Shown here piece after piece: positions 33,356 to 46,248 of a stretch of 64,000 bases of DNA. Numbering within the stretch: the stretch's first letter is position 1; every line of letters begins with the position of its first letter. Both the position numbers and the translations under genes were made by a program. Below the pieces are notes generated by a model. The model searched no databases and had not been told where the DNA came from. It saw only the letters and a program-made list of their open reading frames with translations. The DNA comes from a bacterium (GTDB lineage: Bacteria; Patescibacteriota; Minisyncoccia; UBA6257; JAUSGH01): contig JAUSGH010000019.1 in the NCBI GenBank assembly GCA_030649055.1, forward strand, positions 1,454-65,453. The letters run 5' to 3'.

Positions 33356-34978
33356 ATGAAAAAAGTTTTTATCGGTTTGGGTGTGCTCATTGTTGGCGCG
33401 GTTGCGCTGGTGTCAACAAATCCTAGCGGTATATTTACGCCATGGTTGGCAAAAATTTCGCGCGGTCCGGAGATGAGCGGGTTGGCGACGCAAAAAGGAG
33501 ACAAAAACATTCCGTATAGCGCGATCTTTACTGTGGTTCCGCCGAAGCCGGTTATCGCGCGCCAGGTATCAAAGCTGATAATTGCCCGATTAGGAGGCGC
33601 GCTCACCGTCACCGATGCAAAAGGCGTAGTGGCAACGCTTGTCGTTCCCGCGGGCGCCGTGAAGCGTGACACCACCATCACCATGGCGCCGCTCCAGGAA
33701 GTGCCGATAGCGAATTTTACCGATGCGTTTAGTAACGGAGTAGTTATTGAACCCGCGGGTTTGCAATTTGAAAAAAATGTGCAACTGACGTTTGACTATA
33801 AGCCGACAGCATCGGCAAGTCGCGCAAGCGTTAATCCGTATCTAGCACAAGTGTTGGCGCTCACGAGCGAGGAGGAAGACCGGGCGCTGTATGAAAAATT
33901 CAAAAATCAGACACCGGAAGAAAACGAAAAATACATGAATGACTTGTTCGGCGACGCGATCCAGAAATTAGAAAAAGCCGGATTTCCCGTGAATGCAGTC
34001 CCTGCGAAGGCGCCGGCGGTAAGCGCTCCTCAACCGAGCAGCTTCAGCAACGGTACAAAAGGATCAAAAAACACATTACCTAAAAAACTTGCCGTTATTC
34101 ACGTTGACCATAATACCGGGCGTGTGAATGTCGCGGAAACTACTCATTCGGTATATGGCTCCAAAATCACCGCGACTGTCCGCAGTTTAAGTTCTTTTCC
34201 TACGGTTGATATGGGCGGACCGGCGGGACCCGGACTTGGGCAAAATGATTTGCAAAATGGCGCGGCTGATGCGGGGGGAGCGTGCACTCCATCATTTATC
34301 AACGCCATGCTTAGGGTGGCTTCTTGGCAGATGGCAACCGGTGCCGGCGGCGAAGCTACGGCTATGCAAGCCGTAGAAGATTGCGGCAGGAGCGCGTTTG
34401 AAGAGATGAAACAACGCTGTGAAGCTGATCCCCAGCATGTCACTCGTCGCGAAATGCTCGGGCTTATTCAGCTACTTCAACAACTCGGCGTTGAGCCGGA
34501 AGCGGAGCAGTCAATGGAATTGATGCAAACCTGTAAACGCATTTATTCTGTCTATGCGAACGTGGATGTGCCGGTCCCCGAAGGCAAATCAACGTATGGA
34601 ATAAACGCTCAGCTCTGCGGGTACTTGGATGAACAGTGGGTTGGAACGGAAATCGCGGATTATACGATTTATTTGACTGAAGGTTGGACCGAGCAAGTGT
34701 ATACGGGGGATATCCGATTTACGCTTCCACATGGTGGCGGACAATTCCAAACAGTAACGCGCGGTAATGTCTTGGTCACGGGTCGTGTTCCAAGAATCAA
34801 TGTGCCGGAGACGGTTATGTCGGTTGAGGGCGATGGACAAATTGGTAACTACGACGGCAATAAGCAGGTAACAATTTTTTATAGTATGTTCGGACATGTA
34901 GATGTGCCGATGACGATTGAGATAACAAAGCAACAATGCGAAAGCACAAACGAAGTACTGGAACAATCCGGAATGTAG
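33356..34978 (+). CDS. hypothetical secreted protein (540 aa)
   Basis: N-terminal signal/anchor MKKVFIGLGVLIVGAVALV. No recognisable catalytic motif. Confidence 0.5.
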   Translation: MKKVFIGLGVLIVGAVALVSTNPSGIFTPWLAKISRGPEMSGLATQKGDKNIPYSAIFTVVPPKPVIARQVSKLIIARLGGALTVTDAKGVVATLVVPAGAVKRDTTITMAPLQEVPIANFTDAFSNGVVIEPAGLQFEKNVQLTFDYKPTASASRASVNPYLAQVLALTSEEEDRALYEKFKNQTPEENEKYMNDLFGDAIQKLEKAGFPVNAVPAKAPAVSAPQPSSFSNGTKGSKNTLPKKLAVIHVDHNTGRVNVAETTHSVYGSKITATVRSLSSFPTVDMGGPAGPGLGQNDLQNGAADAGGACTPSFINAMLRVASWQMATGAGGEATAMQAVEDCGRSAFEEMKQRCEADPQHVTRREMLGLIQLLQQLGVEPEAEQSMELMQTCKRIYSVYANVDVPVPEGKSTYGINAQLCGYLDEQWVGTEIADYTIYLTEGWTEQVYTGDIRFTLPHGGGQFQTVTRGNVLVTGRVPRINVPETVMSVEGDGQIGNYDGNKQVTIFYSMFGHVDVPMTIEITKQQCESTNEVLEQSGM

Positions 34979-34979
34979 T

Positions 34980-35519
34980 ATGAGCGGTATAAAAAACAAC
35001 ATTATTGCCGTGGCGCTCGCGATAACCGTCGCAATTCCGGTTATTTCTTTTGGCGCAACAGAGCCGGAAGTAACACCAAGAAGCATCTTTGCTTTTTTTG
35101 ACGCTGCCGTAAAAAAGATATCACGTTTTTTTTCGGCGTTGTCGCGAAGCGAAAAGGTTGCGCCAAAAACCGAACAAGCAAAGCCGGAGACGACGGAGAA
35201 AAAAATTCCGGAATCGGCGTTGGAGAAAAGACTGAAAAATGATCCGGAGTATGGCCGGGTATTTCAAAAGTTAAATCCCGAAGACAAGTTGCGGGCGCAA
35301 AACGTTCGCACTATTGAAGATCGGCCCGTTTCGCCGCTTGAACAATTACCCAGTAACCGCTTCCCGATTTTTGAAGCGCCGGCATCAGGCGTTGTGTTGC
35401 CGAACTGTCTTTCGTCCGGAACCGTGTGCGCCGCAAACGGTAAAACCTATGTGAACGCTTGTTTGCCCGAACAGGCGAAGGTGGCAATTGCTCATGCGGG
35501 CCCGTGCGGAGCGCGATAG
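34980..35519 (+). CDS. secreted protein with C-terminal Kazal-type protease-inhibitor domain
   Basis: Signal peptide, then LPNCLSSGTVCAANGKTYVNACLPEQAKVAIAHAGPCG with Kazal-like Cys spacing and the Y-x-N-x-C core. Confidence 0.55.
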   Translation: MSGIKNNIIAVALAITVAIPVISFGATEPEVTPRSIFAFFDAAVKKISRFFSALSRSEKVAPKTEQAKPETTEKKIPESALEKRLKNDPEYGRVFQKLNPEDKLRAQNVRTIEDRPVSPLEQLPSNRFPIFEAPASGVVLPNCLSSGTVCAANGKTYVNACLPEQAKVAIAHAGPCGAR

Positions 35520-35536
35520 CAACGAATTAATGCGAC

Positions 35537-36292
35537 GTGTTTATGAAAAAGATTTTGAAAATCATCGGTGCGCTCATATTGTTTTTGCTATTGGGCATGC
35601 TCCTTCTTTTTATTGCAGCCCGGAAAGCGTCACCTCCGCAGATTGTTGCTAATTTCACCGAACTCGACAAAATAGAAAAAATCTCAAAATATCGAAGTTG
35701 CGCCGGACATACTACTGTTCCGCAAGACGAACGCGAGATGCGGCGGAGCATGAAGCACTATTTTTCGGTGAAGCCGGAATATCTTGGCGGCAACACGGTC
35801 AATATTTATGCTCCGTATGACGGTTTTGTCGCCGTTACTCGCGAAGACCGCGCGGATGGCTTGGAGGGGGAGATCTGGATTGTGCCAAATGATATATATG
35901 TAATGCTTCCTCCAATATGGAGATGGAGTTTTAGCGTTCAGCACATCAATATACGCGAAGGATTAAAACGAGGGAGCGAGGTGAGGGCGGGTGAGCTTAT
36001 CGGTTACGCGGCAGTTGCCGGCGGAAACAGGAATACGTTTGATGTCGTTTACGCCAAAGGAAGCCCGATCCCCAAACGCATAGATAATTGGATGGGGCCG
36101 TTTAGTGATTTGGACTCTGTGTTTAATCACATGTCGGAAGATGTTTTCGCGCAATATCAAGCAAGGGGGATTGAGTCAAAAGAAGATTTTCTGATTACTA
36201 AAGAGGAAAGGGATCTGAATCCGTGTACATACAAGGATGACGGCCCGTATTTCCTTAATCAGGATGATTCCAAAAATTGGGTTGTGTTTTGA
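35537..36292 (+). CDS. membrane-anchored hypothetical protein (possible degenerate LytM/M23-like fold, weak)
   Basis: N-terminal TM. VRAGELIGYAAVAGGNRNTFDVVYAKG resembles the M23 G-x-IG-x-G-xTG-STGPHLHFE region but lacks the His residues. Confidence 0.35.
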   Translation: MFMKKILKIIGALILFLLLGMLLLFIAARKASPPQIVANFTELDKIEKISKYRSCAGHTTVPQDEREMRRSMKHYFSVKPEYLGGNTVNIYAPYDGFVAVTREDRADGLEGEIWIVPNDIYVMLPPIWRWSFSVQHINIREGLKRGSEVRAGELIGYAAVAGGNRNTFDVVYAKGSPIPKRIDNWMGPFSDLDSVFNHMSEDVFAQYQARGIESKEDFLITKEERDLNPCTYKDDGPYFLNQDDSKNWVVF

Positions 36293-37308: not shown

Positions 37309-37632
37309 ATGAAGCTCGGTATCATACTACAATCCAACAACCCGGAGCACATTTGGAACACATTCCGTTTGGGCATTACTTCCCTTAAGGCCGGTCACGC
37401 GGTGACCATCTTTTTGATGAGTGAGGGAGCCGAACTTGACACCATTGCTGACACGGAACACTTTGATATTTCCAGGAAGGTTGCCGAATACAAGGAATTG
37501 AAAGGAGGCCTCTATGCCTGCGGCACTTGTTTGAAGATCCGGGGTAAAAAAGAAAGCGGGGTTTGCCCGGTCTCTACCATGACGGATTTGCTCAAGATGG
37601 TTGAAGAATCGGATAAAGTGCTCGTCTTCTGA
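37309..37632 (+). CDS. DsrE/DsrF/TusD-like sulfur-relay family protein
   Basis: MKLGIILQSNNPEHIWNTFRLGITSLKAGHAVTIFLMSEGA...LYACGTCLK matches the DsrE-like fold and Cys. Confidence 0.55.
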   Translation: MKLGIILQSNNPEHIWNTFRLGITSLKAGHAVTIFLMSEGAELDTIADTEHFDISRKVAEYKELKGGLYACGTCLKIRGKKESGVCPVSTMTDLLKMVEESDKVLVF

Positions 37633-37950: not shown

Positions 37951-37986
37951 AAAAACCCGGTCGCCTGAGGCGACCGGGTTTTTTGT
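37951..37986 (+). terminator. intrinsic terminator CCCGGTCGCC-tgag-GGCGACCGGG-TTTTTT
   Basis: Perfect 10-bp GC stem plus T-run. Confidence 0.8.
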
Positions 37987-38011
37987 TGCGCGAGTTTGTT
38001 ATAATAGAAGT

Positions 38012-38293
38012 ATGAATAAAAAAACTATATTGGTCGCGTTTGCGGTCGCGGTTTTTGTGTTACTCGGCGCGGGATATTATTATTGGAAAACAAGCACGCG
38101 GGAAGCTCCGAAGTCCGCGGCTGAGCAGGCGCTGGATGATCTTCAGCAAACGGCTGCCGGTGTTTCGGCCGATGTCGGAAGTAGTGTTGCGCCGGATGTT
38201 ACAACGCCGAATGTTAATCCGATTACAACCGATACGAACCCGTACAACAAAACCAACCCGTTCTCGGGTTTAAAAACTAATCCGTTTCAATAA
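38012..38293 (+). CDS. small secreted protein
   Basis: Signal peptide MNKKTILVAFAVAVFVLLGA and a T/P/N-rich tail. Confidence 0.45.
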   Translation: MNKKTILVAFAVAVFVLLGAGYYYWKTSTREAPKSAAEQALDDLQQTAAGVSADVGSSVAPDVTTPNVNPITTDTNPYNKTNPFSGLKTNPFQ

Positions 38294-38299
38294 AAAGTT

Positions 38300-40972
38300 A
38301 TGAATAAAAACATATTAAGCGTTTGTATTCTTATCTCCGGCATGCTGATTTCCGGCGCGATCGTCGGCGTTACGGGAATCGTGAACGCGCAAGAAACGGA
38401 TTCGGCGCCTGCCGGTATTCAATTTCCGATAGCGGAATTGGGTAACTGCGGAAGCAAGGAGGAGTGTAAAGTGTTTTGCAATGACTCGCAAAACAGCGAC
38501 GTGTGCTTCGCGTTCGCTGAACGGAATAATCTGATGAGCGCCGAGGAATTGGATCACGCGAAAAAGTTTAAGGATGGCGGAATGATCGGTCCCGGCAGCT
38601 GCAAGGGGCAGGCGGAGTGCGACCAATACTGTGGCAACGGGGACCACATGGAGGAATGCATCGCGTTCGCGCAAAAGAACGGAATGATGTCGTCTCGGCA
38701 ATTGGAAGAATCGCAAAAAGTGTTGGCGGCTGTCAAAAAAGGGGTGAAGCCTCCTGCGTGCGGCGGACCTAAACAATGCGATGCGTATTGCGGTAGTCCT
38801 GAACATATGGAGGAATGCATGAATTTTTCTATTGAGGCCGGACTCATGCCCGACAACCAGAAAGAGCAGATGCAGAAGACGCTTGCCGCCATAAAGCGGG
38901 GAGTGAAACCACCTGCGTGCCGTGGTCCGCAGGAATGTGATGCGTATTGCAGTAACCCCGACCACATGGAAGAGTGCGTGAATTTTGCCGTAGAGAGCGG
39001 GATGATGCCGGACAATCAAAAGGAGCAAATGCAGAAAACTTTGGGCGCGCTCAAACAGGGCATTAAACCGCCGGCGTGCCAGCCGAATCGGCCACCAAAT
39101 CAGCAAGGGCAACCTGGTGGACCCGGTCAGCAAGGTGGTCCGAATGAAGGCCAAGGTTTTAACCCGGGCTCCGGAGCGAACGGCAACGGTCCGGGTCGCG
39201 GTCAGGGCGGTCCGAGTGAGCAATTTAATCGACCGGACAATGGCTTGCCGTCGTGTGACCAGTATTGCGGCGAAGATAGCCACGTTGATGAATGTGTGAA
39301 ATTTTCCGTGGCGGTCGGCAATATGACGGAAGAGCAGGCGCAGGTTTCTATAAAAACCCGCGGCAAAGGTCCGGGCGGATGCGTGGGGAGGGAAGCGTGC
39401 GATGCGTTTTGCGGCAATCCTGACAACCAAGAAACCTGTTTTAATTTCGGAAGAGACAACGGAATGATTCCGCCTGAGGATTTGCAGCGCATGGAGGAAG
39501 GCCAGCAGCGTATGAAGGAATCGTTTTCGCAGATGCCGCAGGAAGTTGCGGATTGTCTCGCGACTTCTCTCGGCGCTGATGTTGTTGAAAAGATAAAGAG
39601 CGGATCCGGGGTCAATCCGTCGGTTGGCCGCGCGATGGGAGAATGTTTCCAAAAAAATTCTCCGCGGCAGCCGGATGGGCAGCAGCCCGGAGGGCCCGGT
39701 CAATTCGGCCAGTCGGGACAAAGCGGTCCGGGCGATCCTATGTCCGCGGATCTGAAAGAATGTGTTCGATCTCAAGTTGGAGAAGATGGTCTTACAAGAA
39801 TGCAGTCCGGAAATGTTGACGACTCCGCGTTTATGGAGAAAGTGCAAACGTGTTTTGAGAAATTCGGTCAGCCGGGTCAGTTTGGTCAACCTGGGCAATT
39901 TGGTCAGCAAGGACAAAATCAGACCGGACAGCAAAATGAGCAGATTCTGCCATGGGCGGATATGTGCGAACCTGATGGAAACGGGAATCCGACGGCGTTG
40001 GCGTGCGTTGACGGGACCGGAAAATTTGTAGTATCGGCAAAGGTAGGCTCAGATGGAAATCCGGTTTGTCCTGAAGGTTCGACGGCGAAGTGCGGTGATT
40101 ATCATCAGGATAATCAACGGAGTCAGTTTAATCAGGGCCAACCCGGTCAGAATCAAGATGATCGGGGTCAGTTCGGTCAACCGGGTGAGCCCGGACAGCC
40201 GGGCCAGCAAGGGCGGGGTTTTGGTCAGTTCATCAAAGGGTTCTTCGGGGGTCAACAGGATCAATCAAATCAGCAGGGTCCGCAGGGACAAAATCAGCCA
40301 GGTCTGGGCGGTATAAATCCGGGTAATCAGCAGATGCCGCAACAGGCCGGTCCCGGTGGCTGCAAAGGGCCGGAGGAGTGCCAAAAATACTGTACTGCTA
40401 ATCCGGAAGTATGTAAAAATTTCCAGCCGCCACAAAATCAACAAGGTCAGCCGGGACGCAATCAGCAGGGGCAACAACAAAAGCAAACCGGTCAGCGAGG
40501 ACAAATACAGCCTAACCAGCCTAAACAGCAAGGTGCCGGCTTGGGTCCCTGTGGTACGGGTCCGGGTACTTGTTCGGGTATAGGGCCTGATGATGTGAAA
40601 GGTAATAGGGGAAACGGCCCCGGCGGTCCTAACGAGGGACAAGGCTTTGATCCCGGCACAAGACAGCGTGGAGATGGCTCTGGTCAAGGTGGTCAACCCG
40701 GACAATCGGGACAGTTTCCTCCGGGAGGGGCATCGTCCGGACAATTCCCCTCCATTCCGCAATTTATACAAGGGCAACCCGGATCGACCGGTCAATTCCC
40801 GTCCCCCGGACAGTTTCCGTCCCCTCCGCAGTTTATGCAGGGACAACCCGGTCCGACCGACGGAACGCAACCCGGTCAGTTTGTGCCGCCGCCGCCGAGC
40901 CAATCCGGACAACCGGGACAATTCAATCCGCCCGTAGAGATGCAACCCCAACAACCGCCGCCGCAGCCGTAA
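38300..40972 (+). CDS. giant secreted Cys-rich repeat protein (about 7 copies of a ~57-aa C-x-G-x-x-E-C-D-x-Y-C-G-x-P-D-H-M-E-E-C-x-x-F module, Q/G/P-rich low-complexity tail)
   Basis: Signal peptide. Repeats include KPPACGGPKQCDAYCGSPEHMEECMNFSIEAGLMPDNQKEQMQKTLAAIKRGV. Tail has QPGQFGQPGQFGQQGQ runs. Confidence 0.6.
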   Translation: MNKNILSVCILISGMLISGAIVGVTGIVNAQETDSAPAGIQFPIAELGNCGSKEECKVFCNDSQNSDVCFAFAERNNLMSAEELDHAKKFKDGGMIGPGSCKGQAECDQYCGNGDHMEECIAFAQKNGMMSSRQLEESQKVLAAVKKGVKPPACGGPKQCDAYCGSPEHMEECMNFSIEAGLMPDNQKEQMQKTLAAIKRGVKPPACRGPQECDAYCSNPDHMEECVNFAVESGMMPDNQKEQMQKTLGALKQGIKPPACQPNRPPNQQGQPGGPGQQGGPNEGQGFNPGSGANGNGPGRGQGGPSEQFNRPDNGLPSCDQYCGEDSHVDECVKFSVAVGNMTEEQAQVSIKTRGKGPGGCVGREACDAFCGNPDNQETCFNFGRDNGMIPPEDLQRMEEGQQRMKESFSQMPQEVADCLATSLGADVVEKIKSGSGVNPSVGRAMGECFQKNSPRQPDGQQPGGPGQFGQSGQSGPGDPMSADLKECVRSQVGEDGLTRMQSGNVDDSAFMEKVQTCFEKFGQPGQFGQPGQFGQQGQNQTGQQNEQILPWADMCEPDGNGNPTALACVDGTGKFVVSAKVGSDGNPVCPEGSTAKCGDYHQDNQRSQFNQGQPGQNQDDRGQFGQPGEPGQPGQQGRGFGQFIKGFFGGQQDQSNQQGPQGQNQPGLGGINPGNQQMPQQAGPGGCKGPEECQKYCTANPEVCKNFQPPQNQQGQPGRNQQGQQQKQTGQRGQIQPNQPKQQGAGLGPCGTGPGTCSGIGPDDVKGNRGNGPGGPNEGQGFDPGTRQRGDGSGQGGQPGQSGQFPPGGASSGQFPSIPQFIQGQPGSTGQFPSPGQFPSPPQFMQGQPGPTDGTQPGQFVPPPPSQSGQPGQFNPPVEMQPQQPPPQP

Positions 40973-41018
40973 CTCCTGACGCGGTAGCAACCCCGCGGGC
41001 GTTTTCTCCGCTTTATTT

Positions 41019-43781
41019 TTGTTTGTTCGCGGAAGCGGCACGCATGCAATGTGCTACAATGAAGGCATGAATGGCTGTAATAATTATGCGTATTGTACAT
41101 CAGCGCGACGGTTTGTCGCGGGTTTTATTATGTTCGCGAGTTTATTTCCGGCCGGTTTTTCGCTCGCAGTGTATAGTCCGATTAATTATTTTCAAATTAC
41201 TTATTCGCCTACGGTGTTCAGTAAAACTCTGATAACGAACGGGGGGACTTTTACCGCCACAATTAAAAGCAAGGGCGTTGCAACGCAAAACCCTCCATCT
41301 TCAGCGGATGCGGTCAGATTTTCATATCGTTACACTGCCAATAATAAAGCAACCGGTAAGGAGATCGTGTTGAATCCGTTACAAACTCTTACCGTAGAAC
41401 CCTTCCCGCAAAAACAGGGAGAAAGTTATTCAGCGACGAATGTAGCGTCGCTGCGGTTTCCCGCAGGGAGCGCCTCGGGCGATTATACGGTGGTTGAGAC
41501 AATTACCAATATTGAAATGAAAGACTCCGGACTTGATTGGCGACCCGCTCCTAAACCCTCTAAACCCGCTCCGCCCACGAAACCCTCCGCGCCGTCACAA
41601 CCAACCCAGCCGTCCGGTCCGGGGAGCGGGGGAACAGAGTCGTCACAACCTACGCAACAATCTAAACCCACCAAACCATCAAAGCCACCCGAGCCAACAC
41701 GGCCATCTGAACCCACAAGACCGGCAGAACCGACTGCGCCTCCGGGACCTCGCCGTGAAATAGGGACGGTAACATATGCGCCGGCAGTTGCGCCGGAACC
41801 AATGATCCCTGCGCCGGAGCCGGAGTTAGCAACAGAACCGGAATTAATACCGGTTTCTGATCTCAAGGCAGCGCCGGCAGCAAGATCTACTGTAGCCGCA
41901 TTGGCTCTTTCGCCGGCTTCTGTTATTGGTGGCGCGACTTCAGTCGGTAAAATTACATTAGTCAAGCCCGCGCCCGTAGGCGGTCAGGAGGTGATGTTGC
42001 TGTTGATGGCCCCCAATAACACCTTGTCGTTTCCCGCGAAAGTGACAGTGAGTGCTGGCGCAACAACCGGTATTTTTAATATCACGACCAAGGCAGTAAA
42101 TTCGCCGTTGAATGTGACTATTACGGCTACGTTGGGCATGGGTAGTCCAAAGCAAGCCGCTGTATTAACCATTAACCCGACACCGATTCTAACCGTGTCC
42201 GCGTTGTCTATATCTCCGGCAACGGTTACGGGCGGTGACTCCGCAATTGGCACGGTGACGTTGAGTGGTCCCGCGCCTACCAGCAATAAAGTTGTGCGGC
42301 TATCTGCTTCGCCAAGCGATTCGCTAATAATTCCAGGGAATGTGGTTGTGAAAGCTAGTGAGACGTCGGCTACGTTTGATATTAAAACCAAAAAGGTTAC
42401 ATCTGCTGCGAGTGCGATTATTACAGCCACACTTGATAGCTCCCAAAAAACCGCTTCGCTTACGATCAATTCGGCGCCTGCGGTTTGCGCCGGCACATGT
42501 GTCCGCTCCGATCAGCCGGGTCCTTCGGGTATGATGGGTCAAGGAACCGATAGTTGTCCGTCTGCGAAGACCGGTTCTTATAGATGCCGGTTGTTTAGTA
42601 CGTGCTATTATTACACCCCACAGGTTTGCTATGTTCCCATCCCAATTCCTCTTATATTAAATGTTTCTCCGGCATCAGTGATCAATAACACTTCCGCGGT
42701 CGGCACCGTTATTTTGGGTTATCCCGCGCCTGCCGGCGGGCAAGTTGTGCAATTGTCGGCCAACACCTCTGCTGTAACGGTTCCCACGAACGCGACAGTC
42801 CCGGCTGGAGCGACAATGGGTACTTTCGAGATTAAAACCAATACGGTGAGTTCAATCGCGCGCGCGACCATTGAGGCAACGCTGGGTAATTATCGGGGAA
42901 GTGCGACGCTTACCGTTGAACCGACTCCGCCGCCGCCAATATTCGCGTTTACTGTGTCTCCGAATAGTCTCGTGAACGGCGGATCTGCGGTCGGCACAGT
43001 GACGTTGAGTAATCCTGCGCCTGCCGGTGGTCAAGTCGCGCAGTTGTTAGCGAATCCAACAGGTACCATTACGTATCCTTCAATTGTAAGGTTTCTCGCC
43101 GGCGCGACAACGGGCACGTTTAACATTCAGGCTACTAAAAAGGTGACCGCGCCTCTTACGGTGACCATTACGGCTACGCTGAATAACTTTCAGAAAATTA
43201 CTACGTTCATAGTGAATCCGACGCCTCCGCCACCCACCATGTCTGCGGTGACTGTATCCCCGGCGCAACTGGTTGGTGGCGCCGCCGCGGTCGGCACGGT
43301 CACTTTGGATAGCGTCGCGCCCGCTAACGGTCAGGTGGTGATGTTGTCGTCTAATACCTTTGGCGTCTCATTGTATGGCGACACATTCACTACTTCGTGG
43401 TATTCGTGGTCGCCGCCTCCTCCGCAAGTAACAGTGAAGGCCGGAGCTACAACGGGCACGTTTAAAATCCAAACCAATAAAGTCAGTTCACTCGTAACCG
43501 CGGTCATTACGGCCACGGCAAATAAGTCGCAAAAAACCGCTCAATTCACGATCAATCCGGCACCCGTAGCTTGCACTGACAGTGATAACGGAAGGAATTA
43601 TACCGTGAAGGGATCCGTTAAAACCGCGACGTTCTCCGGAAATGATAGTTGCGACGATTCTAAGCTGGCTGAATATTATTGTCTGAATTCGCCAAGTGCA
43701 TATGGCGATATGTTTGGCGTAGTCGAATATAACTGTCCGAATGGTTGCAAGGACGGGGCGTGCTTGCCGGCTCCACGCTGA
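41019..43781 (+). CDS. large cell-surface protein with proline-rich linker and about 7 tandem ~95-aa Ig-like repeats, Cys-rich C-terminus
   Basis: Repeat pattern SP-x-SV-x-GG-x-SAVGTVTL-x-PAP-x-GGQVV-x-LSAN...AGATTGTF-x-I-x-T...ATL...KTA-x-LTINP. Linker PAPKPSKPAPPTKPSAPSQPTQP. Confidence 0.6.
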   Translation: MFVRGSGTHAMCYNEGMNGCNNYAYCTSARRFVAGFIMFASLFPAGFSLAVYSPINYFQITYSPTVFSKTLITNGGTFTATIKSKGVATQNPPSSADAVRFSYRYTANNKATGKEIVLNPLQTLTVEPFPQKQGESYSATNVASLRFPAGSASGDYTVVETITNIEMKDSGLDWRPAPKPSKPAPPTKPSAPSQPTQPSGPGSGGTESSQPTQQSKPTKPSKPPEPTRPSEPTRPAEPTAPPGPRREIGTVTYAPAVAPEPMIPAPEPELATEPELIPVSDLKAAPAARSTVAALALSPASVIGGATSVGKITLVKPAPVGGQEVMLLLMAPNNTLSFPAKVTVSAGATTGIFNITTKAVNSPLNVTITATLGMGSPKQAAVLTINPTPILTVSALSISPATVTGGDSAIGTVTLSGPAPTSNKVVRLSASPSDSLIIPGNVVVKASETSATFDIKTKKVTSAASAIITATLDSSQKTASLTINSAPAVCAGTCVRSDQPGPSGMMGQGTDSCPSAKTGSYRCRLFSTCYYYTPQVCYVPIPIPLILNVSPASVINNTSAVGTVILGYPAPAGGQVVQLSANTSAVTVPTNATVPAGATMGTFEIKTNTVSSIARATIEATLGNYRGSATLTVEPTPPPPIFAFTVSPNSLVNGGSAVGTVTLSNPAPAGGQVAQLLANPTGTITYPSIVRFLAGATTGTFNIQATKKVTAPLTVTITATLNNFQKITTFIVNPTPPPPTMSAVTVSPAQLVGGAAAVGTVTLDSVAPANGQVVMLSSNTFGVSLYGDTFTTSWYSWSPPPPQVTVKAGATTGTFKIQTNKVSSLVTAVITATANKSQKTAQFTINPAPVACTDSDNGRNYTVKGSVKTATFSGNDSCDDSKLAEYYCLNSPSAYGDMFGVVEYNCPNGCKDGACLPAPR

Positions 43782-43803: not shown

Positions 43804-44319
43804 TTACGGCTTTTCCCGCACCACGATAAATCTCCGCTTCCAGCCTTTTAAGAAATCCGATTCGGAAATACTCCGGTCCTTTTTAATTCCGTACGCGGGG
43901 TCGTGATATATCACTGTGCCGTCGTCGTGAATGCCCACAACGACAATGAGGTGACCCAGCGTTGTTTTGGGATTGAACTTGTTGTGGATGGACACCATGA
44001 CCGGTCCTCCGGTCAAAAATTCTTTGAGCTTCGCGAATGCGGCATCGTTTGTCGCGTTCCAGAAGTCGTAATTTTTTCCGGAAAGGCCGTACAAATCTGC
44101 CAGCGCGGCTAACCGTTTATGATTCCAGCCCACATCCTTTGTATACGCGCCAAATTCCAGCGCTTCTAACAGCAGCTTTGTTACCGACACGCGTTTTGCG
44201 GTATAGAACTCCAGCTGCATGGCTAAGCTTGCCACGCCGCAGCCCTCGCGCTGCCACTCCACCTGAGGAATGTCCTGGAATTGCGAGTAAAAGGGGACGT
44301 TGTCCGCGTGAATAATCAT
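43804..44319 (-). CDS. C39-like (papain-fold) cysteine peptidase domain protein
   Basis: GCGVASLAMQLEFY candidate catalytic Cys and GHLIVVVGIHDDGTVIYHDP candidate His/Asp. 171 aa. Confidence 0.5.
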   Translation of the reverse strand: MIIHADNVPFYSQFQDIPQVEWQREGCGVASLAMQLEFYTAKRVSVTKLLLEALEFGAYTKDVGWNHKRLAALADLYGLSGKNYDFWNATNDAAFAKLKEFLTGGPVMVSIHNKFNPKTTLGHLIVVVGIHDDGTVIYHDPAYGIKKDRSISESDFLKGWKRRFIVVREKP

Positions 44320-44394: not shown

Positions 44395-46248
44395 ATGTGG
44401 CAACGTATCGTACGGCGGCATCGTTTGGTTATTCTCATCATTCTCATGCTCGCCAGCATCGGCGTATTGGGCTTGTCGTATGAACAGCAATACCGCGGGA
44501 GATTTTATCCGGGCGTAATTCTTGGGGGCATTGATGTTGGCGGGAAGTCTTATGGGGACGCGCGGGCGTTGTTTGAGCGGCGCGCCGGCGAGTTCGCTGA
44601 GCACGGGCTTGATTTTATTTTTGAGCGTGGCGACAAACAAAAAGAAGTGCGGGTGCCCGCGTTTATCGCCGGTCTCACTCCCGACAACCTTGTGGTATAT
44701 TTTTCGCTTGGTAATTGGGCGGCAACCATTCGTGATGCATACGCCTTCGGCCGGACGGGTTCGTTGTGGCGCCGTGGCACGGAGCAATTCGGCGCGCTTG
44801 TCTCCCGCAAAAATATTGACATGCCCGGCACCGCAAACAGAAACGCCGTGCAGTCGCTGTTGAATCGCGAACTTGTAAAGTTCTTTTCAACCGCCGCGCC
44901 GGCGCAGTTTGTTAAAAGGGGTTCGCTCATGGTCATTGCATCGGAAAAAATCGGCGAGCGGGTGGATGACGCGGAGATATTTGATGCCATAAGTCGGAAC
45001 CTCGCCGTGTTCGACGCAAGCGTCATTCGCTTGCGCGCCAAAACTGAAACGCCAGAAGTGACGGCGGAAAAACTTGAGCCGTTTTTGAAGCTCGCGAATG
45101 ACATCGCCAATTCGGCCCGTCTGACCTTTTATTATCGGGACGCGCGCTGGCGGGTGAATGGCGCGACGCTCGCAAGCTGGCTCACGCTCAAGAGTTCCCG
45201 CGAAATCGGTATTGATACCACGAAGCTCAAAAATTTCCTCGACAAAACCGTGGTGCCGGTTATCAACGACCCTCCGCGCAACAGCCGTTTTGAAATGCGT
45301 TCCGGCACGCTCGTCGAAACTATTCCCGGAAAATCCGGCAATGTGGTGGATATTGAGGCGACGGTGCGGCATGTGGAAAAGGTGGTGTACACGGTACAGC
45401 GTTCGTATGCCCAGAACGGTAATTTGTATCTCGCGCTCGTTTCGGCAAACGCGCAGGTGAACGTCACCGCGGATAGCGGCGCAATGGAAATCCCCATTGA
45501 AACCATTGAAGCCAATCCGGAGATCACTAAAGCGACTATTGAGGAATATGGCATTCGGGATCTTGTCGGCTCCGCGAAAACAAGTTTCAAGGGAAGCAGT
45601 TCCGACCGGCGGCATAACATTGAAATCGGCGCCGCGAAGTTGAATGGCATACTCATCGCGCCCGGGAAAGAGTTTTCCGCGGTCACCTCCATCGGCACCA
45701 CTAGCGAGGCGGAAGGGTTTCTTCCCGAATTCGTCATCAAAGAAAATAAAAGCGTCAAAGAATTGGGCGGCGGACTTTGCCAGGTGGCGACAACGCTTTT
45801 TCGGCTCGCGTTAAATGCCGGACTTCCGGTCACGGAGCGGACTAACCACCGCTACGTTGTGTCATATTACGGGCCGGGGCTGGACGCAACCATCTACGAC
45901 CCGAAGCCGGATTTGAAGTTTGTGAACGATACGGATACGTATTTATTGTTGCAGGGAAGAGTGGAGGGCGATGAGGTAGTGTTTGAGCTGTATGGCCGGC
46001 GGGATGGGCGGTTGGCGTTGATTTCTGATCCGATATTGACGGATGAACTACCGGCGCCGGACGTAAATTATGTTGCCGCTCTCGATTTACCCGTCGGAGA
46101 GATTCAGTGCAGCGAGACGCCGCGCAAGGGGATTACCGCCGATGTCACCTATACGGTGCGCTATGTATACGGAGAAATAAGGGAACAGAAATTTCACAGC
46201 GTGTATCAGCCGTGGCAACGCATTTGTCTTGTGGGATTACTGCAGTAA
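44395..46248 (+). CDS. VanW-family protein
   Basis: N-terminal TM. C-terminal VanW box LGGGLCQVATTLFRLALNAGLPVTERTNH. Confidence 0.7.
   Translation: MWQRIVRRHRLVILIILMLASIGVLGLSYEQQYRGRFYPGVILGGIDVGGKSYGDARALFERRAGEFAEHGLDFIFERGDKQKEVRVPAFIAGLTPDNLVVYFSLGNWAATIRDAYAFGRTGSLWRRGTEQFGALVSRKNIDMPGTANRNAVQSLLNRELVKFFSTAAPAQFVKRGSLMVIASEKIGERVDDAEIFDAISRNLAVFDASVIRLRAKTETPEVTAEKLEPFLKLANDIANSARLTFYYRDARWRVNGATLASWLTLKSSREIGIDTTKLKNFLDKTVVPVINDPPRNSRFEMRSGTLVETIPGKSGNVVDIEATVRHVEKVVYTVQRSYAQNGNLYLALVSANAQVNVTADSGAMEIPIETIEANPEITKATIEEYGIRDLVGSAKTSFKGSSSDRRHNIEIGAAKLNGILIAPGKEFSAVTSIGTTSEAEGFLPEFVIKENKSVKELGGGLCQVATTLFRLALNAGLPVTERTNHRYVVSYYGPGLDATIYDPKPDLKFVNDTDTYLLLQGRVEGDEVVFELYGRRDGRLALISDPILTDELPAPDVNYVAALDLPVGEIQCSETPRKGITADVTYTVRYVYGEIREQKFHSVYQPWQRICLVGLLQ

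Follow-up and report, generated by a model that had tools for sequence, protein, structure and literature searches.

The 64,000-nucleotide (nt) stretch of DNA analysed here, referred to as the window (positions 1,454 to 65,453 of the 68.8-kb contig JAUSGH010000019.1 from the metagenome-assembled genome GCA_030649055.1), carries three consecutive genes, here named S, A and B, all of which are annotated by NCBI as hypothetical. A preliminary description made from the letters alone had listed them as a cluster of surface proteins, and the open reading frames (ORFs) are found where it had placed them: S at 38012-38293 (93 amino acids, aa), A at 38300-40972 (890 aa) and B at 41019-43781. The last of these encodes 920 aa if read from a TTG codon, as had been done in that description, whereas the start chosen by NCBI, an ATG at 41067, gives 904 aa. 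The assignment of the three products to the cell surface or exterior is also borne out, A having a Sec signal peptide, and S and B N-terminal hydrophobic anchors. Their grouping as one cluster did not survive: only S and A are linked across genomes (60 of 60 assessable loci), and B is adjacent just in the closest relative. Protein A is predicted to be a secreted helical-repeat protein stapled by cysteines, a known general kind, with an obligate partner gene, S, that has previously gone unnoted. The features of the locus are collected in Table 1.

Table 1. Coordinates of the genes and features described in the text, numbered from the first letter of the window
Feature	Position	Strand	Remarks
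Terminator-like hairpin with T-run	37963..37985	+	3' of the cold-shock gene, separating it from S
Extended -10-like box, TGnTATAAT	37997..38005	+	6 nt before the ATG of S; tentative, read from the sequence
Gene S	38012..38293	+	93 aa; NCBI Q7R85_04150
Conserved NP-repeat tail of S, NVNPITTDTNPYNKTNPFSGLKTNPFQ	38213..38290	+	Proposed docking peptide
Gene A	38300..40972	+	890 aa; begins 6 nt beyond the S stop codon and shares its frame
Sec-type signal peptide of A	38300..38389	+	aa 1-30, ...GIVNA/QETD
Modules 1-4 of A	38435..39064	+	aa 46-255; three-helix units, C-x5-C-x3-C-x8-C; hidden Markov model (HMM) matches, pLDDT >90 in AlphaFold2
Module 5 of A, split	39065..39370	+	C1 = C260, insert aa 261-318, then C319, C323, C332
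Module 6 of A	39368..39523	+	aa 357-408; HMM match, AlphaFold2
Two helical 2-Cys units of A	39533..39865	+	C419...C449 and C488...C518, both with CF(Q/E)K at the end
Low-complexity G/Q/P/N tail of A	39866..40969	+	QF/FG motifs
Overlapping terminator-like hairpins with T-runs	40980..41011	+	3' of A
Gene B	41067..43781	+	904 aa from ATG; P0069 / Q7R85_04160

The linkage of S and A was assessed by clustering all ORFs of 63 loci, in each of which A is present, by all-against-all BLAST. In 49 of the 63 an ORF of the S family is located directly upstream of A on the same strand, the gap being mostly -8 to +36 nt. The locus L001 serves as an example, where a 65-aa gene 10 nt upstream of the A homologue is homologous to S (YYYWKT, NPYNKTNPFS..K.NPF). 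Eleven of the remaining 14 loci have a divergent small ORF in the S position, encoding an N-terminal transmembrane (TM) helix and NP(F/L/Y) repeats that end in NPF, and the last three end at a contig edge upstream of A and are hence not assessable. Judged by motif, an S-like gene is thus found directly upstream of A in all 60 assessable loci, and the clustering gave no other neighbour common to more than 8 of the 63. Gene order across these loci indicates that the true conserved unit is S and A, not S, A and B.

The closest relative, represented by the groundwater contigs L065 and L066, retains the order cold-shock gene, S, A, B, C39 peptidase and VanW. Its S is 86% identical and its A orthologue (L065:10287-13430, 1047 aa) 62% identical overall. 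The latter likewise has seven modules of the kind described below; a further domain of ~110 aa is present at its N-terminus, and residues ~540-600 of A, with their different 4-Cys segment, are replaced by two Kazal-like Cys units. The parts of A outside the modules thus turn over quickly, in contrast to the conserved modules and S.

An S-like ORF and an A homologue are also present on a genuinely archaeal contig, JAFCDW010000019.1 (L060:3606-5212), from a Pacearchaeota bin. The pair is located between genes for aEF-2, uS7 and uS12 on one side and BacA and EF-1alpha on the other; the flank matches include aEF-2 (TIGR00490, 1022 bits), EF-1alpha (TIGR00483, 610 bits) and uS7 and uS12 of archaeal/eukaryotic type. 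Apparently, the S-A pair has moved as a unit between bacteria of the candidate phyla radiation (CPR) and a DPANN archaeon. Its presence on an archaeal contig suggests that S-A is independent of peptidoglycan and of the genes that neighbour it in the window.

Protein S starts with MNKK and has a TM helix at aa 5-25, a GYYYWK motif, a linker rich in T, P, V and S, and a C-terminal tail with four NP motifs and the end KTNPFSGLKTNPFQ. Neither Pfam nor NCBIfam gave a match above threshold for it. The relatives of Q7R85_04150 form a family of 39 proteins, and all members keep the conserved TM helix and the belt of aromatic residues. The consensus of 49 homologues reads MnKK, TM helix, GY.YWK, QGVLPS and then, at the C-terminus, NP....PD.NP..KTNPFs..KtNPF. 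The tail is the best-conserved part of S across deep lineages, and divergent variants likewise end in NPF. The N-terminal flank of the helix carries a mean of 2.1 K/R, and the 15 residues past it 2.4 K/R and 1.6 D/E; a topology with the N-terminus inside and the C-terminus outside is weakly predicted.

The signal peptide of protein A has no twin-arginine motif and has a cleavage-like site, VNA/Q. The motif (Y/F)PxxELGNC, present in 234 of 265 family members, precedes module 1. A profile built from 77 family modules matches A seven times (aa 46-98, 97-149, 150-202, 203-255, 318-357, 357-408 and 684-708; E 3e-26 to 9e-8) and found no match outside A in the six-frame translation of the window. 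The preliminary description had counted about seven copies of the module, and this number stands, far beyond chance, but its account of the unit needs correction. The period is 53 aa (51 for the first unit) rather than about 57, and there are four Cys per unit rather than six, arranged as C-x5-C-x3-C-x8-C. Furthermore, the HMEEC sequence, taken to be invariant and to supply one His per unit, occurs literally in just three units of A (His at 116, 169 and 222). Over 246 family modules the corresponding position is His in 59% and Asn in 37%, less well conserved than Tyr at position 10 (89%) and Phe at position 23 (96%).

Module 5 is interrupted by 58 residues rich in G, Q, N and P, which are disordered in the structural model and have their ends joined by a beta-bridge; the homologues P0003 and P0008 share this split layout. 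The helical 2-Cys units of A also occur in homologues. The long G/Q/P tract noted earlier is confirmed, with 53% G+Q+P in residues 470-890, and residues 520-890 consist to 67% of G, Q, P, N and S and hold 13 QF and 6 FG dipeptides. Three elements interrupt the tail: a 4-Cys segment (C556-C598), a truncated module 7 (aa 684-708, nt 40349-40423) and a 2-Cys loop (C751/C758). The protein has 39 Cys in total, 38 of them after the signal peptide. Recent duplication or slippage at the DNA level was considered and rejected, as modules 3 and 4 are just 72% identical in DNA and the tail holds only short 18-nt repeats. The antisense ORFs opposite A (up to 539 aa, e.g. 38315-39934 on the minus strand) are likewise regarded as shadows of the coding strand and not as genes; their recurrence across loci merely reflects the conservation of A.

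Structure prediction of the repeat, one of the checks proposed in the preliminary description, was carried out with AlphaFold2 (AF2). The 435-residue model of A, based on a 69-sequence alignment, has a mean predicted local distance difference test score (pLDDT) of 84.4 and a predicted template modelling score (pTM) of 0.65, with pLDDT above 90 in the modules. Each module is modelled as three helices: a short one with C2-x3-C3, a second that begins with (H/N)-hydrophobic-(E/D)-(E/A)-C4-x2-F, and a longer third. C1 is placed in a (G/K)P(G/P)x loop ahead of the helices. With three alpha-helices per module, the unit is predicted to be all-alpha and not a knot, so that of the disulfide-knotted domains proposed earlier the knot falls away and the disulfides stay plausible. 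The fairly high pTM for a model of 435 residues suggests that the modules pack as a continuous array.

The module had been described as unrecognised, and the searches agree. Nothing in Pfam or NCBIfam scored above threshold for A, and the 69 aligned relatives gave only sub-threshold matches that stem from the Cys pattern. Searches of PDB sequences with A and with the module profile found no relative, and Foldseek comparison of the A model with PDB and BFVD gave nothing significant, the best PDB hits (E 3.3) being solenoids of the PPR/TPR type. The weak Pfam matches to AtDEF-like, ADAM10 Cys-rich and SEP were discarded, since they can be put down to the Cys pattern or the signal peptide. AtDEF-like (PF25052) gave weak matches in 41 of the 69 members; five that were inspected scored 13-16 bits against a gathering threshold of 25 bits, and most of these covered the signal peptide and the first Cys cluster. 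A defensin-like, CS-alpha-beta identity was also rejected, since such a fold has a helix on a beta-sheet and the AF2 modules are all-alpha.

A word-indexed protein search returned 68 relatives of A, all hypothetical, and nearly all of those with a named source belong to Patescibacteria. Among 1.84 billion representative proteins, the module profile matched 1,864 at E<=1e-3 and 1,034 at E<=1e-30, these 1,864 being clusters at 50% identity. When one genome per GTDB species was scanned for the pattern, 59 loci were obtained, all in Patescibacteria with the exception of the Pacearchaeota bin. They represent Paceibacterota, Lloyd-, Nomura-, Jorgensen-, Wolfe-, Kaiser- and Azambacteria, further Lipton-, Harrison-, Curtiss- and Wildermuthbacteria, and bins labelled Saccharibacteria. 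The family was not found in collections of known phages, plasmids or IMG/VR viral contigs, and our literature searches found no published description of it, the closest being a general comment on Cys-rich exoproteins of Peregrinibacteria (PMC4736985). By its distribution in these databases the module is an unannotated yet widespread domain family that is mainly confined to CPR bacteria. Comparison of the repeat number, also proposed earlier, gave 2-9 modules per protein in the genome loci and up to 13 among the representatives.

The usual order in family members is a signal peptide, (Y/F)PxxELGNC, modules, CL...CFEK units, a low-complexity region of G, Q, P and N, a PPPP motif and a short amphipathic C-terminal segment. 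In L003 (6730-6732) and L004 (Nomurabacteria GCA_016186435.1; Logan assembly) the A homologue is broken by an in-frame TAA (…GLISEE*MKEMEAGRQ…), and the same sequence recurs in an independent assembly. This could represent a split gene, a pseudogene or read-through. The A homologue of L005 is also split, probably by a frameshift.

In the window, S and A look like a separate transcription unit, given the terminator-like hairpins on both sides, the 6-nt spacing within one frame and the box before S. This box was not listed by the promoter scanner, there being no -35 match, and it may indicate a leaderless S transcript or one with a very short leader. B has its own box, TGnTACAAT, 6 nt before its ATG. 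Counting that of the C39-like peptidase, boxes of the -10 type (TATAAT or TACAAT) are found 6-7 nt before three start codons (37997-38014, 41052-41069 and, on the minus strand, 44355-44319), two of the three with an upstream TG. These start-proximal boxes suggest that leaderless transcripts are common in the source organism.

Downstream of B, the window encodes a papain-fold protease of the Peptidase_C39_2/C70-like type (43804-44319, minus strand, 171 aa), which has no attached ABC transporter, followed by a protein with VanW and PG_binding_4 domains (44395-46248, plus strand). In the closest relative, L065, synteny with S-A-B extends to both of these genes. Upstream, at 33356-36292, lies a run of exported or uncharacterised proteins with just marginal domain matches to ZU5 (E 5e-4) and Kazal_2 (E 8e-4) and a 251-aa TM protein. 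Next come two small membrane proteins and, at 37309-37632, a DsrE-like protein. The neighbourhood looks like an island of envelope-protein genes.

The reading we favour, with a probability of roughly 40%, is that S and A make up a self-contained module at the cell surface of Paceibacteria-type CPR bacteria, in which A would be a stapled helical rod and S its probable tether. In this scheme A would be exported via Sec, and its N-terminal half would fold as an extended array of 53-residue three-helix modules followed by the two helical 2-Cys units, each module being locked by its four near-invariant Cys, most likely as two disulfides. The C-terminal ~370 residues, predicted to be disordered, rich in G, Q, P and N and with scattered Phe, could be a flexible spacer or a cohesive surface layer. 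S would be a single-pass membrane protein of ~90 aa with its tail, ending ...KTNPFxxxKTNPF, probably outside the cell. We propose that this tail (candidate peptide TDTNPYNKTNPFSGLKTNPFQ) docks onto the helical array of A and holds A at the membrane. Neither an LPXTG motif nor a C-terminal TM segment was found in S, A or B, and such docking would explain how A can do without an anchor of its own. The biological role would then be that of an envelope scaffold, a coat or an adhesive layer.

Several observations weigh against this proposal. The topology of S is ambiguous by the positive-inside rule. Between the NP motifs of S and the modules of A there is just a weak correlation in number (rho 0.28, p 0.03, uncorrected for phylogeny), and no fusion of S and A is present among the 150 best family representatives. 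Furthermore, most homologues of A end in PPPP and a short amphipathic segment, and A of the window is without that segment. Since the segment is common in homologues, anchoring may differ between members.

An alternative, which we regard as rather unlikely, returns to the preliminary description and takes S, A and B jointly as the host-attachment apparatus of an episymbiont, with A and B as adhesins and the modules or a Cys-rich tip binding the host. Protein B has, in the 904-aa numbering, an N-terminal hydrophobic helix, a beta-sandwich (42-153), a Pro-rich segment (157-275), Ig-like repeats (276-371, 377-469, 530-619, 625-718 and 725-831) and two 6-Cys regions, one an insert (470-528) and one C-terminal (834-904). 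The Pro-rich stalk and the Cys-rich knob described earlier are thus both present, and Ig-like folds are supported as well, but the repeats number five and not about seven. They are ~93 aa each (HMM E 1e-40 to 1e-44) and differ from the N-terminal beta-sandwich. The AF2 model of B (83-sequence alignment) has a mean pLDDT of 76.5, with the beta domains mostly above 90, the Pro-rich segment disordered and both 6-Cys regions at low confidence. Foldseek matched it at E 1e-18 to 1e-11 to tandem Ig-like arrays (ciliary central-apparatus proteins, titin, alpha-2-macroglobulins), consistent with a repeated beta-sandwich fold of seven to eight strands. Neither the whole protein nor single repeats matched any Pfam model at threshold, Big_1-3, CARDB and Calx-beta included. 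NCBIfam likewise gave no match above threshold for B, and no relative was found among PDB sequences in searches with whole proteins and with the repeat profile.

The layout of anchor, Pro-rich stalk, Ig-like repeats and Cys-rich tip is the usual one of fibrillar adhesins, and it speaks for attachment together with the fact that S, A and B are all exported or anchored. The conserved order S-A-B-C39 peptidase-VanW in the closest relative points the same way, as does the rapid divergence of the middle and tail of A (62% identity to its orthologue against 86% for S). A function in attachment has also been suggested for large, Cys-rich extracellular proteins in CPR bacteria (PMC4736985). Against this, the modules of A are strongly conserved and not variable, and B has a -10 box of its own, is preceded by terminator-like hairpins and is unlinked to S-A beyond the closest relative, so that it was rejected as a conserved partner. 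Its repeat (window 41892-43559) is generic, with more than 1,485 relatives in many phyla, including Armatimonadota-like organisms, Dongiaceae and Woesearchaeota, and is found fused to beta-propellers, peptidases, deacetylases and other domains. A repeat spread over that many phyla and partner domains is a generic building block, and B is best described as a generic Ig-repeat surface protein with a fibrillar-adhesin layout, outside the conserved S-A unit.

The Cys of the modules could alternatively be metal ligands. The four Cys, with or without the His/Asn, would then form a tetrahedral Zn site or a Cu/Fe site, and A would be an extracellular metal buffer, store or redox protein with S as its membrane partner. 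All four Cys are kept in 1746 of 1752 distinct module instances (99.7%), from which we conclude that they are essential, and this invariance leaves no paired losses from which connectivity could be read. Four near-invariant Cys contributed by a loop and two helices, with His, Met, Glu and Asp near C4, would suit a metal site, and C-x3-C on a helix is also found in Cys-lined copper storage proteins. In addition, the source organisms come from anoxic groundwater, judging by the sample origins, where thiols could stay reduced. The position of the His is not conserved, which counts against a His ligand, Asn taking its place in 37% of modules. The signal peptide is of the Sec and not the Tat type, so that no preassembled cofactor would be exported, and neither sequence nor fold matched any metal-binding family in Pfam, PDB sequences or Foldseek searches. 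Export together with an even, paired Cys complement is what is expected of disulfide domains, a parity argument reportedly used by Dutton et al. in 2008. Of 66 family ORFs, 61 have an even number of Cys beyond the signal peptide, and the Cys outside the modules come as isolated pairs (C419/C449, C488/C518, C751/C758), which fit disulfides and not four-ligand sites. The retention of C1 in module 5, despite the insert of 58 residues, adds to this. On these grounds, Sec export without a twin-arginine motif included, two disulfides per module are most likely, and we consider metal sites unlikely.

It seems quite improbable that S is a client or substrate and not an anchor, i.e. a precursor whose NPF-rich tail A binds, processes or presents, or else that A is a scaffold or chaperone for other envelope proteins in the manner of TPR/Sel1-like repeat proteins: the tight coupling of S and A, 6 nt apart in one frame, the conservation of the S tail right at the C-terminus and the common use of helical repeat arrays in peptide binding would all fit, but no protease or modifying enzyme is conserved beside S-A, and all S members have kept the TM helix and aromatic belt.

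CPR bacteria make up a large share of bacterial diversity, and most of their surface proteins are unannotated. What is defined here is a large unannotated domain family with its predicted fold and a strictly conserved partner gene, by which a hypothetical protein is recast as a two-component system with a peptide-docking hypothesis. If the modules hold two disulfides each, this would be evidence for oxidative folding of envelope proteins in these organisms with reduced genomes. The archaeal occurrence points to a transfer of the cassette across domains, between organisms of similar lifestyle, and suggests that the S-A pair works whatever the type of cell wall. A bolder extension of the tether proposal, which we hold to be doubtful, is that the four-Cys three-helix module is a new class of extracellular peptide-recognition repeat with the NPF-type tail of S as ligand, and that S-A is a portable anchor-plus-coat cassette which CPR bacteria and DPANN archaea, both of them ultra-small episymbionts, have exchanged and which serves host contact or scavenging at their cell surface, e.g. 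of lipids. Many CPR and DPANN organisms are thought to be unable to make lipids.

Large Cys-rich extracellular proteins with signal peptides have been described in Peregrinibacteria, which also belong to the CPR; their function is unknown, and roles in rigidity or attachment were proposed (PMC4736985). They average ~1,650 aa and ~7% Cys and have weak similarity to Cys-rich repeats of Myxococcus (PMC4736985). These proteins resemble A as Cys-rich exported CPR proteins, but neither the 53-aa module nor an S partner is described there. Protein B, for its part, resembles the fibrillar surface proteins of monoderms in its N-terminal anchor or signal, Pro-rich wall-spanning segment, Ig-like repeats and Cys-rich end. 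It differs from them in having neither LPXTG nor a match to the Big, CARDB or Calx models, and its repeats form an unannotated family of their own.

The alpha-solenoids of the TPR/PPR type, which were the top-ranked if not significant Foldseek targets, are extended arrays of short helical repeats like A. Their E-values of at least 3.3 and TM-scores of 0.16-0.18 indicate no real similarity, and, unlike A, such proteins are cytoplasmic, are without the Cys and have two-helix repeats of 34-35 aa. For the proposed contact between the S tail and A, the EH domains of eukaryotes offer a precedent. These all-helical, cytosolic pairs of EF-hands recognise a short Asn-Pro-Phe peptide; the likeness is one of analogy alone, and no homology was found or is claimed.

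The Hcp proteins of Helicobacter, which are Sel1-like, consist of secreted tandem alpha-helical repeats, each stapled by Cys, and act as scaffolds that bind proteins or ligands. The Sel1 profile (PF08238) matched neither A nor any of the 69 family members at E<=1, and we know of no S-like partner gene for Hcp. The Hcp repeat has 36 aa, two helices and one disulfide, whereas the module of A has 53 aa, three helices and four Cys. What the two have in common is their general design, that of secreted, tandem, Cys-stapled alpha-helical repeats.

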